A DNA stretch of 35,128 bases from Chiloscyllium plagiosum (GCF_004010195.1 NC_057718.1:54779864-54814991); one strand, 5' to 3'; counted from the stretch's first letter, positions 2,591 to 35,128 are shown. Notes: generated by a model not told the origin, from the letters alone. Made by a program: numbers and translations.

Positions 2591-3419
2591 TTACTGCTCC
2601 TCGGATGCTGCCTGAACTGCTGTGCTCTTCCAGCACCACTAATCCAGAATCTGGTTTCCAGCATCTGTAGTCATTGTTTTTACCTCATTGGAAATCATGT
2701 CCATACTTGGCTCTCTTTCTCTCTGCAACTCTACACAAAGTTTTATTTTTTATTCTTGATCTTGTTGGACTGACACGTCTTGAATTAGGCATCAAAATCT
2801 TTTCAAAGACTTGAGTTTTATTGTAAATTTATAGTTTCAAACACTAACTTCCGTCTTTACCTTCCAGCCAATTGGGTCACAAGCTTCCCACCCTCAGGAT
2901 GCATTCTGCACCAGTGCCAATGCCCAGATGACATACAGCCCTGCCCTGTTTTTATCCTCCCTCCCTTTCACGCTCTCTCTCTCTAGATCATGCATTCCTG
3001 ACCCTGGTTGCTTCATCAGGTTTTCTGTTACCAGGGTATATGAAGAGCTTGGCTGAAAACTCATGGCCAGTAACTGGCACACATTATGTTGTATGTCTAT
3101 TTCGAAGCACTTTATGTTGAAAGCCTGGTCTTTGACTGTGAACCAAGCAGCCATTCCTCCACTGCCAAACTGCTGCCAGGGGCCAATGCCAACATGCTTT
3201 GCTTCTACAACAACTGGTCACCCAACATTAGACATCAGATTCTCAACCTGCACTTGCAAACAATTTTTCAAACTGGCATGCAGTATAAAAAAACTGAACA
3301 TTCAGCGAACATTACTATGCTGCTTTGCAACAATTTTATTTTGTGGGCATCTATGATTGACTGTTAAAATGGGGCTATATTAGAAAATTTGGTTACTGCT
3401 GTACAGTATACACATTTAG

Positions 3420-29870: not shown

Positions 29871-30294
29871 GATTATGTTTGATGACACCCAAAAGCATAT
29901 GTGGGCAGAACAAAATTTCTTAAATTGAAACAGAGGATGATAAAAGCCGAATGAACTCTTAAAATGAAAACCTTAACATACTTTTAAAAAGTGAGGAGAA
30001 AAAGAACTTAAAGAAGATTTTTTTAATTTAAAAAATTAGCTTAATATTGCACATTCACATTTAAAAATCAGAGGTAAGCATGCACAGTCAGAATTTATTA
30101 TAATTAGATCATTGGTGTCAGCAGACTTTTAAATAGAAAGAGATTGCCGAATAATGAGGTACAAACGGATATAGGTGTTGTAGTGGTTGTAACAAAGTCA
30201 GCCAGGTGGACCTCAAAGAATATGAGTTCCCTGATTGGGGCAGTTAGCTTGGTCTAATTACATGGCCCTGGCTGACAGATATAACCAGGAGTGT

Positions 30295-30643
30295 TACCTT
30301 CCTCTGTTTCTAGTTGCACTTCAGTCCCACGCTCCTGATCTTCGGATACCCAGTACAGAGGGGGGAGGGAAGGTCTGAGGACCTCCTTATGGGTCTGCTC
30401 TTGGGCCTGGCCAAACTGCCATAAACAGGTCCAGGCAGCGGGCGGTGGAGGGAGTCGTTAGGGCCAATTGCCTGCCCCTCTTCCATGGTTGCATTAGAGC
30501 CCGGGTGTCTGCGGAGAAGGAGAACGCGGTGTCCACCAACACCCTGGAGTTTTTCAGGGAGAGGTGGGCACCGCAGGGAGTGGAGTGTATTATTTCTCCC
30601 TCCAACTCTATTTTGATTTAATCCCTGCCCTGCCTTTACTGTT
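30295..30643 (+). mobile_element. Tx1-clade LINE ORF2 3' fragment, copy A
   Basis: Homologous to copies B and C, ending shortly after the ORF2 stop (ISPSNSILI*). Confidence 0.8.
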
Positions 30644-31310
30644 CCAACTGCTTGTTCTGTGGTGCTGTGGACTCCGTGGACCACGTGTATATTGGGTGTG
30701 GGTGTTTGCACTCACTTTTTGATTTTCTGAAAAACCTCCTCCTCTGCTTTTGGTTGCACTTCAGTCCCACGCTCCTGATCTTTGGGCACCCGGTACGGAG
30801 GAAGGAGGGCAGATCTGAGGACCTCCTCGTGGGTCTGCTCCTGGGTCTGGCCAAACTGGCCATAAACAGGTCCAGGCAGCAGGCCGTGGAGGGATCGTTA
30901 GGGCCGACTGCCTGCCCCTCTTCCGCGGTTACGTTAGAGCCCGGGTGTCTCTGGAGAAGGAGTACGAGGTCTCCACCAACACCCTTGAGCTGTTCAGGGA
31001 GAGGTGGGCACCGCAGGGAGTGGAGTGTATTATTTCTCCCTCCAACTCTATTTTGATTTAATCCCTGCCCTGCCTTTACTGTTTGATCACACAGCATTGC
31101 CCTTTGATGTGAAGGGCACTGCTTGTCACTGGCCACTTGTGTGTTTCTTTTCTTCCCGGTGGTGGAAATTGAATAAAGATTTTGTGAACCTTGTGTCTTT
31201 CACTGTGTCTCACACCTGCACACACACAACATGAGTACGAGGGAAAAATAAGCACTACCCCAGTTAATGGTAGTGTGGGGTTAAGAAAAAAAAGAATATG
31301 AAAGAAAATT
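30644..31310 (+). mobile_element. Tx1-clade LINE 3' end, copy B (CCHC zinc knuckle, 3' UTR, A tail)
   Basis: CLFCGAVDSVDHVYIGC (C-x2-C-x7-H-x4-C), then LLLCFWLHFSPTLLIFG..LLLGLAKLAINRSR, typical of the Tx1/L1 ORF2 C-terminus. AATAAA, terminal hairpin and A-rich tail. Confidence 0.85.
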
Positions 31311-31532
31311 AACAAGAGTGTCATAGGTTCTGTTCACTCTGAGAGCTGGCTCTGAGGGAGCTTGATCTGTGCAAAGGACTCTCCATGTCTAAATAAAGGA
31401 CATCTTGGTAATGGGACGTTAGCCTCTGTGGAGTTATTTCACCTCCCCTGTGACCTCTAAAACCCACCCCCAATCTGTTTGCCTTCTGACTAAGGTCCCC
31501 AATTACAAAAAAAGGAAAATAAACAGGAGTGT

Positions 31533-32052
31533 TACCTTCCTCTGTTTCTGGTTGCACTTAAGTCCCATGCTCCTGATCTTCGGATACCCGGTACAGTACA
31601 GGGAGGACAGGTCTGAGGACCTCCATATGGGTCTGCTCCTGGGCCTGGCCAAACTAGCCTTAAACAGATCCAGGCAGCAGGCCGTGGAGGGGGTTGTTAG
31701 GGCCAATTGCATGCCCCTCTTCTGCGGTTATGTCAGAGCCCAGGCATCTCTGGAGAAGGAGCACGTGGTGTCCACCAACACCCTTGAGCTGTTCAGGGAG
31801 AGGATGGCACCGCAGGAAGTGGAGTGCATTATTTCCCCCTCCAACTCTATTTTGATTTAATCCCCGCCCTCCCCTTCACTGATCACGCAGCATTGCCCTT
31901 TCAGAAGGGCACTGCTTGTCACTGGCCACTTGGGTGTTTCCTTTCTTCCTGGTGGTGAAATATAAATAAAGGTTTACACACTTGTTGTTCTTCATTGTGT
32001 CCGACACCTACACACACACACGGCATGGAGCTAGGGGGGAAAAAAAGTAAAA
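31533..32052 (+). mobile_element. Tx1-clade LINE 3' end, copy C
   Basis: FLCFWLHLSPMLLIFG..LLLGLAKLALNRSRQQAVEG..ISPSNSILI*. The 3' UTR ends ctagggggg-A-tail. Confidence 0.85.
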
Positions 32053-32169
32053 AAACAGGAGTGTCAGAAGTTCTGCTCACTTTGACAGCTGCCTCTGTGG
32101 GAGCTGGATCAGTGTGAGTGAAGGATTCTGCTCTTCTTTTTCCAGTATTAAAAAAGGAGAGGAGACTAA

Positions 32170-32310
32170 TTCTGTTGCTGCCTTCCCGTTGAGGAGTGGG
32201 AAATGAATAAAGATTTTTGTCTTTCACAGTGTCCCACACCAGCACACACACAATGTGGATGCTGGGGAAAATATAAGCACTCCCGCAGTGTGGGAGTATT
32301 CAAAAAAAAA
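32170..32310 (+). mobile_element. Tx1 3'-UTR-only remnant, copy D
   Basis: tgaataaagattttt..ctttcacagtgtcccacacc..cacacacaa..gggaaaatataagcact matches 31170-31257, followed by a hairpin and A9. Confidence 0.7.
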
Positions 32311-32332
32311 TACAGGAGTGTGGCTGTGCATT

Positions 32333-32403
32333 CAGGCAGTGGCGTAATGGATAATGTATCTGACTTTGGATCAAAAGTTGAGGCTTGAGTCCTCCCTGGC
32401 GAA
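32333..32403 (+). pseudogene. tRNA-Arg-derived pseudogene (anticodon position reads TTG, likely from TCG)
   Basis: cagtggcgtaatggataatgtatctgactttggatcaaaa resembles vertebrate tRNA-Arg (CAGTGGCGCAATGGATAACGCGTCTGACT.CGGATCAGAA). T-arm and acceptor stem are damaged. Confidence 0.75.
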
Positions 32404-32467
32404 AATCCAATGTGTTAATTTGTCCCTATTGTACATTGACGTTGTCTGTAAATTGCTGTTGTGCATT

Positions 32468-32540
32468 GGGCCAGTGGCATAATAAATAATGCGTCTGACT
32501 TCGGACCAGAAAGTTGTAGGTTCGAGTCCGACCTCATTCG
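32468..32540 (+). pseudogene. tRNA-Arg(TCG) pseudogene
   Basis: 73 nt: GGGCCAGTGG..GCGTCTGACT-TCG-GACCAGAA..GGTTCGAGTCC..TCG. B box intact, acceptor stem mispaired, D-loop GG lost. Confidence 0.85.
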
Positions 32541-32805
32541 AATGCAATGTGCTACTGTGTCCCCATTACATGTTGACGGTTGTCTGTCTGTTACTGTTTA
32601 GGGAAAAAAAATAATCAGAAGTGTCACCGCTGTTAGGTGGAAGTGTGGTGGAGAAAGAGAAAGAGAGAAAAAACGAGAGTGTTAGATATCCTAGGGGAAA
32701 AAAAATGTGTCAGAGGTTCCACTCACTTTGAGAGCTGCTCCAAGGAAGCCAGGCCAGTGTCAAGTACTATATACATGTAAATACAGGGTGACTTGGTAAC
32801 AGAAG

Positions 32806-34393
32806 TGGCGACAATAGTGGGATTAATGATATAAATATGCAAAAGTACCTCCTAGCTGAAGCCCAATTGTAGGTCAGGCACTACGCTGGCTTTGTCATTA
32901 GACAATGCAGCAAGAAAATGCAAATGAATTACAGGATATGGTGATGGAAGTGGACACATCACCAGGGCAAGTGAGCTTGGAAGACACCACTTGAGTGAAT
33001 GTAATTGCATAGCCTCACTCAGGAGAAATCCTGAATTAAGGGACTTGAGGTCAGTCCACAGCAAAATCCCAAAACAAAGCCAAGCCTCAACCAAATGGTT
33101 GACATTTTTTTTAGAATCTGGGCCGGCAAGCCATGTAATTGCTGCTGGTACGTAGGCTTGAGACAGCAAAAGAGCCCCAGTAGGCCTGAATTGAGTAAGA
33201 GAACAGTGGTCAGTATCCTGGAGAGTGCACACCCTGGAAAGTCCACCAACATCTGTTTTGGAACAGTTAAATTGCTTAGCAACATCAAAAATCAGAGCCA
33301 ATCAAATAAATGTCTGGCTAAATGGCCACCCGGTTCTAATGGAAGTTGATTCTAATGGGGCTGTATCAGTGATTGCACAACCAGTCTTTAACAAAATTTG
33401 CTCTGGACTCCAGCCCTTAAGTTTGCCTAAGACCTGAGCAAGACTGAGAACCTCTACTGGGGAACCTTTACAGATTAAGGGTACAACTTCAGTTCCAGTC
33501 TCATACGAGAGCATGTTGGTTCAGTTACCAGTGATTGCAGTGAAAGGCTAATGGAGCAAAATTGGTTGAGAGAAATAGACTCAACATTTTTTGATCAGGA
33601 AAGGGCTGCCTGAGTGAAGTCCTAATTAATTACCTAAAAGGATTTTCAAGAAGGTCCAGGGACTATCAAAGGAGCCAAGGCCACCTTATGTGTTGACCAG
33701 AAAGCAATTCCACAATTCTGTAAGGCCAACCCAGTGCCTTTTGTCTTATGTGCAAAAGTAGAGGCAGAAATCAGGATGTTGGAAAGTGAAGAAATCATCA
33801 AACCAGTCCAGTTGGCAAAATGACAAGCATCAGTTATACCAATTATGAAGCCCAAAGAATGGCTTCGCCTTTGTGGGTGAATTGCTTTTTGAAACTGGAT
33901 AAATTGCATAGAGAATTTATACATAAAGTTGGCGGGGGTGGGAGTGCAGTCCTTCATGAAGCTGGACATGAGCCATGTGTATCTGCAATTGTAATTAGAT
34001 GAAGATTTCCAGAAGTATGCTACAATTAATGCCAATAAGGATTTGTACCAATATACGAGGCTGCTATTTGGGAATATCATCAGCCTGTGCCATCATTCAG
34101 TAGATAACGGAGAACATTTTACAAGGTCTATCCCAGGTTGCCATTTATACGAATGATGTGCTAATAACAGGGAAGACCAATAAAGAGCATTTAGAGAAAT
34201 TGAACATTGTCTTGAGATATTCTTCCAACGTCAGCATATGCCTGAGAAGGGAAAAACGCATGTTCCAGGCACCCCAAGTACAAGACTGGGTTACACTTGT
34301 TGGAAGATAAAGCGAGGGTGATTAAAAGTGCTACAGCTCTCACATCTGTCCTGGAACTTAGGTCTTTCCTTGGATTGGTGAATTATTATCAAA
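32806..34393 (+). mobile_element. Decayed Gypsy (Ty3) internal region: PBS, protease and RT
   Basis: TGGCGAC PBS-like motif at 32806. VWLNGHPVLMEVDSNGAVSVI is a degenerate aspartic-protease DTG motif. RT motifs KLDMSHVYLQL, LYQYTRLLFG, IYTNDVLITG and RSFLGLVNYY are present, with many stops and frameshifts. Confidence 0.9.
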
Positions 34394-35128
34394 GGAACAG
34401 GAGAATTGACGTTTCGAGCATAAGCCCTTCTCCAGGAATGAGGAGGGTGTGCCAAGCATGCTAAGATAAAAGGTAGGGAGGAGGGACTTGGGGGAGGGGC
34501 ATTGGGAATACGAAAGGTGGAAGGAGGTTAAGGTGAGGGTGATAGGACGGAGAGGGGGTGGGGGCGGAGAGGTCAGGAAGAAGATTGCAGGTCAAGAGGG
34601 CGGTGCTGAATCCAAGGGTTGGGACTGAGATAAGGTAGGGGGAGGGGAAATGAGGAAGCTGGAGAAATCTACATTCATCCCGTGTGGTTGGAGGGTTCCT
34701 AGGCGGAAGGTGAGGCGCTGCAACCGCAAGAAGTGCAAAACGTGCACCCACACTTCCCCCCTCACCTCCCTCCAAGGCCCCAATGGATTCTTCTATATCA
34801 GTCGCAAATTCACCTGCACCTCCACACACATCATTTACTGTATCAGCTGCACCTGATGTGGTCTCCTCTACACTGGGGAGACAGGCCGCCTACTTGCGGA
34901 ACGTTTCAGGGAACACCTCTGGGACACCTGCACCAATCAACACAACCGCCCCGTGGCTGAACACTTTAACTCCCCCTCCCACTCCGCCAATGACATGCAG
35001 GTCCTTGGCCTCCTCCATCGCCAGACCCTGGCCACACGATGCCTGGAGGAAGAGCACCTCATCTTCCGCCTAGGAACCCTCCAACCACACGGGATGAATG
35101 TAGATTTCTCCAGCTTCCTCATTTCCCC
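34394..35128 (+). mobile_element. Penelope-like element: inverted 3' segment (34394-34719, minus) joined to a GIY-YIG endonuclease region (34719-35128, plus)
   Basis: CNRKKCKTC..FTCTSTHIIYCISCT*CGLLYTGETGRLLAERFREH..VAEHFN..LIFRLGTLQPHGMN. 34644-34719 is the reverse complement of ~35052-35128. The tail hammerhead at ~34405-34438 has a mutated core CTGGAGA. Confidence 0.92.

Follow-up and report, generated by a model that had tools for sequence, protein, structure and literature searches.

Among the long interspersed elements (LINEs) of the Tx1 clade, Keno inserts in U2 genes, Kibi and Koshi in microsatellites and Tx1-9_AMi in Harbinger elements. The crocodilian families Tx1-8_Crp and Tx1-4_AMi insert in specific long terminal repeat (LTR) retrotransposons (Kojima 2015, PMC4494074), and Tx1L of Xenopus laevis sits in Tx1D, a non-autonomous piggyBac-type DNA transposon (cited via PMC4494074 and PMC1950540). 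The first of these sources regards a LINE as target-specific when one kind of sequence makes up more than 20% of its flanks, and reads tandem copies of SINEU-3 "sandwiching a TSD" (a target-site duplication) as sequential insertions (Kojima 2015, PMC4494074). For R1 and R2, its discussion holds that pairing of co-transcribed target sequence strengthens specificity (PMC4494074). Here we analyze a stretch of 35,128 nucleotides from Chiloscyllium plagiosum (GCF_004010195.1 NC_057718.1:54779864-54814991; hereafter the window), in which eight copies of the motif (A)ACAGGAGTGT, separated by seven A-tailed spacers, lie directly 3′ of the TATA-like box of a Gypsy-like 5′ LTR. We consider it likely that a Tx1 family targets this short word in the core promoter of the LTR by target-primed reverse transcription, restores its target in doing so and mobilizes other RNAs to the same site.

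The motif array and its target

The array and the LTR that carries it are made up as follows; Tx1 positions are counted along a 667-base reference stretch that corresponds to window 30644-31310.

30188-30283, + strand: U3 part of the local Gypsy-like 5′ LTR; starts TGTAAC, with a CCAAT-type ATTGG at 30234-30238 and the TATA-like TATAAC at 30280-30285
30284-30294, + strand: motif copy 1, ACCAGGAGTGT, which forms the left side of the target-site duplication (sequence, motif search, LTR copies)
30295-31310, + strand: spacer S1, two joined Tx1 pieces (positions 97-440, then 1-667 with tail)
30295-30643, + strand: S1a, Tx1 fragment of positions 97-440 without a tail of its own, 90% identical to S1b by BLAST
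30644-31310, + strand: S1b, Tx1 3′ end with the C-terminal part of open reading frame (ORF) 2 including a CCHC knuckle, the 3′ untranslated region (UTR) and an A-rich tail at about 31286-31310
31311-31321, + strand: motif copy 2, AACAAGAGTGT (sequence, motif search)
31322-31521, + strand: spacer S2, retrocopy of a transcript from another LTR (contig C4), with an R/U5-type part (31322-31441), C4 flank (31442-31507, 66 bases) and A tail (31508-31521)
31522-31532, + strand: motif copy 3, AACAGGAGTGT (sequence, motif search; bridged by contigs of two studies)
31533-32053, + strand: spacer S3, Tx1 from position 97 to about 605, 3′-truncated at an internal A-rich run, plus tail
32054-32064, + strand: motif copy 4, AACAGGAGTGT (sequence, motif search, contigs)
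32065-32310, + strand: spacer S4, R/U5-type LTR piece of another subfamily (about 32065-32196), Tx1-type 3′ tail (about 32170-32300) and A tail
32311-32321, + strand: motif copy 5, TACAGGAGTGT (sequence, motif search, contigs)
32322-32612, + strand: spacer S5, two tRNA-like units about 135 bases apart and an A tail (Rfam)
32613-32624, + strand: motif copy 6, AATCAGAAGTGT, decayed (sequence, repeat search)
32625-32671, + strand: spacer S6, the final ~30 Tx1 bases (CACCGCTGTTAGGTGGAAGTGTGG...) and an A/G-rich tail (compared with other Tx1 ends)
32672-32682, + strand: motif copy 7, AACGAGAGTGT, decayed (sequence, repeat search)
32683-32705, + strand: spacer S7, 15 bases like the start of the LTR continuation, a CAGACATCCTG variant (TAGATATCCTAGGGG), plus A8
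32706-32710, + strand: last motif copy, eroded to TGTGT (sequence, repeat family D4)
32711-32803, + strand: true local LTR continuation, with an initiator-like TCACT about 14 bases in; its end is shortened relative to other copies, and it matches locus L001 at 3131-3219
32804-34470, + strand: decayed internal part of the Gypsy-like element, with a protease-like DSNGA and a reverse transcriptase with YTNDVLI

An earlier reading made from the sequence alone had noticed the recurring motif, and the sequence confirms its eight copies, the last one eroded. Allowing at most one mismatch, a motif search returned five matches in the 35-kb window, all on the + strand and all within the array; shuffled windows gave a mean of 0.93 such matches and reached five in 1 of 100 shuffles. 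In a repeat search, tail and motif together came out five times in register (family D3), and the motif joined to the LTR continuation three times (family D4). Motif copy 1 adjoins the TATAAC at 30280-30285, an A-rich run precedes each subsequent copy, and every spacer lies on the + strand, as that reading had described for the TATA-like box, the tails and the orientation of the recognizable spacers. Public runs of two studies on this species yield contigs that span 31338-31690 and 31974-32737 with at most one difference, and the right two thirds of the array are therefore not a misassembly. A related species has the stretch 32256-32866 at about 96% identity (22 differences and 4 gaps in 611 bases), and the right part of the array therefore predates the split of C. 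plagiosum and this species.

A genome search with the U3 piece gave at least 1188 first-look candidates, 40 of which were scored at 84-88% identity, yielding 29 loci besides the window's own. The U3 piece runs directly into the motif and CAGAGGTTCTG in 17 of the 29, that is, these LTRs are empty and read uninterrupted through ...CTGGCTGACAGATATA AACAGGAGTGT CAGAGGTTCTGTTCACTCTGAGAGCTGG... A retro-insert sits exactly at the motif, with the motif on both sides, in another 8 of 29. Specifically, a Tx1 of the window's family directly follows the motif in four loci (L078, L083, L088 and L089), a diverged Tx1-like insert lies there in one (L067), and three (L064, L070 and L084) hold other retro-inserts flanked by a second motif copy. 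The last four differ: L076 has other downstream sequence, L080 and L081 carry other transposons 6-12 bases on, and L082 is unclear. Because the 17 empty copies carry the motif once and the filled sites carry it on both sides, the motif is LTR target DNA that is duplicated on insertion and not the terminus of the LINE. This comparison of empty and filled sites bears out the proposal that the target is regenerated at insertion; the alternative named with it, that the motif belongs to the Tx1 end itself, falls with the 17 of 29 LTR copies that carry the motif without a LINE.

Across the 17 empty copies, few stretches are as well conserved as that around TATA and the motif. An initiator-pattern word, TCACTCT, follows 14 bases after the motif, and on that reading the insertion site would sit between the TATA box and the transcription start. 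Mean pairwise difference is 0.229 among LTR copies and 0.095 among Tx1 copies, and thus the LINE spread after the LTR family, invading an older one. A further LTR copy, L092 (G000:C4:53540220-53540620), reads GATATAAACAGAGG instead of GATATAAACAGGAGTGTCAGAGG; because a deletion between two CAG words took nine bases of the motif region, this copy is without the full target.

The target preference was also examined from the side of the LINE, in a sample picked by Tx1 sequence alone (3933 candidates, 40 scored, 28 usable loci). Under a fixed rule (motif with at most two mismatches within 100 bases of the Tx1 3′ end, with windows 400 bases further on as controls), the motif follows the Tx1 end in 15 of 28 loci compared to 1 of 28 control windows, and the first 20 bases of the LTR continuation follow it in 7 of 28 compared to none of 28. 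By eye, a motif variant is visible in 22 of the 28 flanks, two are ambiguous and four have none. Genome-wide, the exact terminal Tx1 16-mer occurs in 1884 copies. AACAGG lies within 5-35 bases after this end-word in 539 of them, compared to about 1.2% expected from the background rate of the window, and ACAGGAGTGT follows in 151. Where a Tx1 piece and an LTR piece lie within 150 bases of each other, 88 pairs are on the same strand and none on opposite strands. The flanks of Tx1 3′ ends, once tabulated, are thus not random, and the enrichment over controls together with the 88:0 orientation supports the earlier claim that a Tx1 family targets an LTR site at the promoter. By the rule of Kojima 2015 (more than 20% of flanks alike), the family qualifies both with the strict count of 7 of 28 and with the 15 to 16 of 28 scored by eye.

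The LTR is not the only place where the word is used. AACAGG is followed by other downstream sequence in L035 (ACCAGGAGATT) and in L038 and L057 (ACAGGGGAT), and L076 belongs to a related LTR family that has U3, TATA and AACAGGAG in common with the window's LTR and a different downstream part. Off-target copies (L033, L036, L038, L044 and L058) have duplications of their own, 7-16 bases long, which in L033, L036 and L038 begin directly after ATAT(A); many Tx1 tails end ...TATATAAACAGG. Because many motif junctions lie outside the window's LTR, the LINE is specific for a word and not for the LTR. That word is apparently close to (TATA)AACAGG, and the second cut seems to fall 11-16 bases further along. 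Thus, of the idea that the LTR is the specific target, one half stands, since the LTR site is hit far above chance, and the other gives way to a preference for (TATA)AACAGG that extends beyond the LTR.

The LINE and its host element

Of the LINE, the window holds only the 3′ end, in which the C-terminal ORF2 segment is followed by about 220 bases of 3′ UTR. A knuckle of the form C-x2-C-x7-H-x4-C is visible in window 30644-30700 and in relatives, and the Pfam zf-RVT match to this region (E 1.2e-4, 23.1 bits) falls short of the cut-off of 27.5. Another copy of this family (L041:52-1032) retains a 327-residue open frame that covers the linker and the N-terminal half of the reverse transcriptase. 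Its best named relative is the Xenopus laevis "Transposon TX1 uncharacterized 149 kDa protein", with 55% identity over 325 residues and 351 bits, compared to 114-116 bits for human L1 ORF2p and 35-52 bits for R2 proteins; Pfam RVT_1 matches the frame at E 2.9e-16. Among named proteins, those nearest to the LINE are 54-59% identical and belong to turtles, sturgeon, a ray and Xenopus. These similarities place the LINE in the Tx1 clade, in agreement with the sequence-only reading.

A genome search with the Xenopus Tx1 ORF2 found many near-full copies, whose alignments begin at residue 3, reach to about 1191 and show about 51% identity; in some of them open frames exceed 1200 residues. This query protein (P0034) is listed with PF03372 and PF00078, in a listing that carries no domain positions, and the alignment of residues 3-1191 should take in the N-terminal endonuclease domain PF03372. 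For one ORF2 copy (C3:127033477-127036395), a 3′ end of the LINE family (C3:127037105-127037510) follows on the same strand after 0.7 kb. The 4.4-kb piece examined of another copy (L091) holds no Tx1 ORF, and this copy is therefore 5′-truncated near the start of the reference.

The label "Gypsy-like 5′ LTR" is reasonable but weakly shown. Pfam RVT_1 matches to the pol of the window range from E 1.3e-4 to 4.6e-3, below cut-off (stop-free pieces, and frames with X at stops), and the window ends before any 3′ LTR of the element. The LTR of L009 ends right at internal position 64 (window 32804), and homologous internal sequence follows the LTR in L009, L010, L022, L023, L027, L045 and L052. In L062 an empty LTR copy is followed by gag-like and reverse transcriptase (YLDD) frames. 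The L062 frame matches three proteins (E 2.3e-14 to 2.3e-5) that carry PF13975, PF00078, PF17917, PF17919, PF17921 and PF00665; their protease, reverse transcriptase, RNase H and integrase domains are listed without order and are shared by retrovirus-like elements. The LTR starts with TGTAAC, and other copies end TTATTTCA. After the LTR, TGGCGAC at 32807 is read by us as a tRNA-type primer site; the whole of 32807-32822, TGGCGACAATAGTGGG, presumably resembles the site at which a tRNA with the 3′ terminus ...GTCGCCA would prime. In spacer S5, the two tRNA-like units terminate in ...CTGGCGA and ...CATTCGA.

Two further stretches of the window were noted. We take an open frame at 34857-35126 on the + strand, CGLLYTGETGRLLAERFREH..., to resemble the GIY-YIG endonuclease end of a Penelope-like element inserted in the decayed Gypsy-like pol at about 34470; Pfam gave no match to this frame at E 0.1. 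Six overlapping open frames of 210-424 residues occupy 1499-2773, and their overlap on both strands suggests low-complexity or repetitive sequence.

Passengers, read-through and the growth of arrays

Not all spacers derive from the LINE. The earlier description of their kinds holds for the Tx1 3′ ends and the tRNA-like units, whereas S2 and S4 contain LTR-type pieces from other LTR copies. The 66 post-LTR bases of S2 have one other match in the genome, on C4, at a locus that is a complete LTR with its own U3 and that runs on into unique DNA where S2 has its A tail. S2 is 93.0% identical to this LTR and flank over 186 bases, with homology stopping exactly at the start of the A tail, compared to only 69% identity to the true local continuation at 32711. 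S2 is thus a retrocopy of a transcript from the C4 LTR and the clearest case of mobilization in trans. The LTR had been thought to resume after motif copies 2, 4 and 8. It does so after copy 8, where the true continuation begins; the piece after copy 2 (31322) is the C4 retrocopy, and that after copy 4, in S4, comes from another subfamily. Joining 30188-30294 to 31322-31441 as one LTR, as had been suggested, therefore mixes two LTR copies. For annotation this is a warning: pieces that look like LTR continuation in such arrays can be retrocopies from elsewhere, and dating by nested insertion would be misled by them.

Among the other spacers, S1b has the closest relative of any unit in the window, a Tx1 copy in L047 (G000:C94673, an unplaced contig) that is 97.7% identical over 556 bases; L047 and L057 contain long N runs. 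Genome matches to S4 span either its bases 1-132 or its bases 132-236, and both parts are joined only in the window's own copy. S4 was considered as a separate family and rejected, since the matches never span both halves. The Rfam tRNA model scores 39.7 bits in S5 at 32468-32540 and 22 bits, below threshold, at 32333-32399; ARAGORN found no tRNA in S5. Genome matches to S5 are 64-136 bases long with 72-89% identity, and several are clustered on contig C8.

Other loci hold passengers as well. The L064 insert is a tRNA-derived element of about 185 bases resembling a short interspersed element (SINE), flanked by motif copies, and that of L070 is SINE-like, about 330 bases long, begins GGCTGCACGGTGGCTCAGTGG and ends AGAAAAGATT instead of a long A tail. 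In L084 (G000:C5:14936429-14939536), a non-Tx1 unit of about 275 bases is present twice, nearly identical, between motif copies and is followed by Tx1 ends. This unit, which may be another passenger of the Tx1 machinery, ends in AATAAA and an A run, and related sequence flanks the L048 array.

Five of the 28 sampled Tx1 copies (L033, L046, L050, L055 and L056) show a succession of Tx1 end, A-rich tail, motif, 14-25 LTR bases, second A run and unrelated DNA, and in these five the local duplication is a different word (AACTATG in L033). The sources of these copies therefore sat in LTR sites, and transcription continued beyond their own tails. The joint of tail and motif often spells AATAAA(CAGG), which could set a poly(A) site about 20 bases on. 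By analogy with R1 and R2, the 3′ end of such a read-through transcript, which is complementary to the nicked bottom strand of LTR targets, could guide priming. We read S7 as a read-through remnant of this sort; similar short pieces follow Tx1 tails in L045, L046, L050, L055 and L056, and further pieces resembling it are found in L032, L045, L049, L052, L054 and L060.

The start points of truncated copies bear on how the arrays grew. When truncated copies were paired within each of the 24 loci that hold at least two, the starts lay no more than 5 bases apart in 32 of 76 pairs, compared to a mean of 3.2 and a maximum of 12 pairs in 2000 shuffles. L060 has five copies that begin at position 45, L049 has three at 239 and the window has two at 97, where S1a and S3, both starting at 97, have 12 non-majority states in common, the highest number among 435 pairs (the next is 8). 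Units with equal 5′ ends differ strongly in the length and make-up of their tails and differ in their 3′ ends too, and of 36 copies from multi-copy loci only 5 are closest to a copy in their own locus. The L048 junction falls on ATAAACAGG, which also occurs within Tx1, the L060 junction falls on GTGT, and truncation hot spots near 440 and 565-574 lie at TGT/GTGT words. A part of the shared truncation points can accordingly be put down, on sequence grounds, to microhomology with the duplication of the locus itself. Another part appears to be true local copying of units, as for S1a/S3 and in L049, L055 and L084: near-twin units are present in L049 and L055 and in the L084 unit, and truncations in L039 alternate in a 572/204/572/204 pattern. 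Such copying may have proceeded by DNA exchange, perhaps triggered by repeated cutting, or by re-insertion of local transcripts. Distances within arrays and between loci do not separate early DNA duplication from independent hits because the Tx1 family has a star-like history. For the window, a plausible history is that S1a and S3 arose through a single copying of an old unit with its start at 97, and that S1b and S2 were later inserted at the motif between them. The array is thus not the ordered record of independent insertions for which it had been taken, given the 32 shared starts against 3.2 expected and the 12 states private to S1a and S3.

Putting these observations together, we propose that a Tx1-clade LINE would cut a short word at the core promoter of the Gypsy-like LTR, GACAGATATA/AACAGGAGTGT/CAGAGG, with GACAGATATAAACAGGAGTGTCAGAGG as the predicted substrate of an endonuclease that would itself read the word, and would insert by target-primed reverse transcription, without exception in the orientation of the LTR. 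Two staggered cuts would duplicate about 11-15 bases (AACAGGAGTGT, sometimes with TATA in front), leaving an intact target on each side of the insert that could be hit again. Other A-tailed RNAs would be inserted at the site too, namely transcripts of other LTRs, a tRNA-array transcript and SINE-like elements. With source copies sitting in LTR sites, LINE transcripts would often run 14-25 bases or more into motif and LTR before a second A tail, and their pairing with the nicked target may sharpen the aim, as proposed for R1 and R2. Arrays would grow in two ways, as any copy of the motif is hit anew and as whole units are copied locally. The data directly show the clade, the target word and its duplication, the orientation, the enrichment, the origin of S2 as a retrocopy and the common ancestry of S1a and S3, whereas the part of the enzyme that would read the word, the contribution of read-through, the manner of local copying and any influence on the LTR promoter are inferred.

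Several findings weigh against this proposal. The samples are small (28 of 3933 and 29 of 1188 candidates) and consist of those most similar to the window copies. The strict rule finds the motif at only 15 and the LTR start at only 7 of 28 ends, L037, L042, L044 and L048 (4 of 28) have no motif and two more ends are ambiguous, and the exact 10-mer follows only 8% of exact Tx1 end-words. Motif junctions occur outside the window's LTR, in L034 (AAACAGGCTTCGTTG), in L039 (ACAGGATTGT) and in the type represented by L035, L057 and L076. The link from endonuclease to tail rests on coordinates and not on one copy read through, the left third of the array (30195-31338) is unbridged by the listed contigs, which are short there and come from many copies, and independent hits alone do not readily account for the identical truncation points inside loci (32 of 76 pairs). 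The last of these points is what would be expected if misassembly, or local DNA duplication through slippage or unequal exchange at the motif and tail repeats, had multiplied one or two real insertions. The excess of shared starts over the shuffles, the common start and private states of S1a and S3, the doubled unit of L084, the copies in L049 and L055 that are each other's nearest relatives and the alternation in L039 all agree with such duplication. However, the seven spacers of the window are of five kinds and S2 has a foreign source on C4; units with the same 5′ end differ in tails and 3′ ends, few nearest relatives (5 of 36) share a locus, some equal truncation points fit microhomology instead (L048 at ATAAACAGG, L060 at GTGT), and the contigs of two studies bridge 31338-31690 and 31974-32737. 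We therefore regard local duplication as a likely contributor and as very unlikely to be the full explanation.

The remaining alternatives concern what brings motif and LINE together. The motif ACAGGAGTGT might be carried in the element RNA, by read-through or 3′ transduction from a few sources, to random sites with no target preference. The five of 28 copies with tail, motif, LTR piece and second A run at unrelated sites are of just this form, but in them the true local duplication is another word (L033: AACTATG), 17 of 29 LTR copies have the motif once without a LINE, inserts at filled sites, SINE-like and other ones included, are flanked by it left and right, and locus-specific motif variants are repeated on both sides in L034, L035, L038, L039 and L060; we find this explanation scarcely credible. 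Equally little weight falls on a Tx1 captured once by an LTR and spread as a composite by Gypsy-like retrotransposition or segmental duplication. A site in U3 passes from the 3′ LTR to both daughter LTRs, so that such spread is possible in principle, and a query spanning the junction found the junction in 40 of 40 scored matches, a result that the query itself forces. However, 5′ truncation points vary widely over the 30 junction loci, running from 45 to 574 between loci, and their tails differ as well, so that these are separate insertion events and not one spread composite; the divergence of the LTRs (0.229) relative to Tx1 (0.095) and the preponderance of empty LTRs in the sample point the same way. 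A less remote but still unlikely alternative is that aim comes mainly from read-through RNA pairing at nicks made by an unspecific endonuclease, rather than from a sequence-specific one. Read-through RNAs do exist, and pairing of this kind is held to strengthen R1 and R2 specificity (PMC4494074), yet the SINE-like, tRNA-like and LTR-derived inserts should lack read-through and still use the same site, off-target duplications start after ATAT(A) or AAC-like words without LTR homology downstream, and the endonuclease of Xenopus Tx1L is sequence-specific in vitro (Repanas 2007, PMC1950540).

Beyond the proposed targeting of the core-promoter word, one could imagine a Tx1 lineage specialized on the core promoter of an LTR family, where its landing between TATA box and start site would silence its host while the LTR drives the inserts and the site traps polyadenylated RNAs of the germ line, units with equal 5′ ends being re-inserted local transcripts. 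We hold this extension to be doubtful. If it were true, the LTR promoter would drive even truncated, promoterless inserts, and the RNAs trapped at the self-restoring site would be LTR transcripts of other loci, read-through from tRNA arrays and SINEs.

Comparison with described systems

The earlier reading knew of no description of the target. A literature search for a Tx1 family aimed at an LTR TATA box, to which Repbase reports and subscription journals were not available, found none beyond Kojima 2015, and a search on Tx1 retrotransposons in sharks returned nothing on targets. The class of target is nevertheless a reported one, since Tx1-8_Crp and Tx1-4_AMi were already described from specific LTR retrotransposons (PMC4494074); published work thus covers both the aiming of Tx1 families at LTR retrotransposons and the stacking of tandem inserts about a target duplication. 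These two crocodilian families are like the C. plagiosum LINE in their aim and differ in host lineage, and the main text of that source states neither the LTR superfamily nor the position within the element.

Tx1L is the closest named relative by ORF2 (55%), likewise occupies one site within another transposon and has an endonuclease that is sequence-specific in vitro. In contrast, its target is a piggyBac-type DNA transposon and not an LTR promoter, with AGTT downstream of the nick (Repanas 2007, PMC1950540). The Tx1-Mar families and SINEU-3 in Mariner-N4_AMi resemble the present case in their tandem inserts around a target-site duplication and in having non-autonomous partners at the same site, and transcription from the flanking target is discussed there as well (PMC4494074). 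The C. plagiosum arrays differ in being longer, with seven spacers in the window and five Tx1 units in L060, and in mixing LINE ends, LTR retrocopies, tRNA-like and SINE-like inserts, with evidence for local copying of units as well.

With the insect elements R1 and R2 the likeness, which for our LINE is drawn by analogy, lies in transcripts with 3′ target sequence able to pair with the nicked target (PMC4494074). These elements belong to other clades, and their targets are host genes and not another retrotransposon. R2, in addition, has a restriction-like endonuclease. Against this background the known range of Tx1 target kinds is unchanged. What the C. plagiosum locus adds is a well-documented case, from another vertebrate lineage, of a LINE living inside another retrotransposon, with a target word defined to the base at the TATA box of the host LTR. 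Thousands of empty and filled targets in one genome make this a good natural system, in which the reading of DNA by an endonuclease of the apurinic/apyrimidinic type, the formation of LINE 5′ junctions by microhomology or local copying and the extent of RNA mobilization can be addressed.

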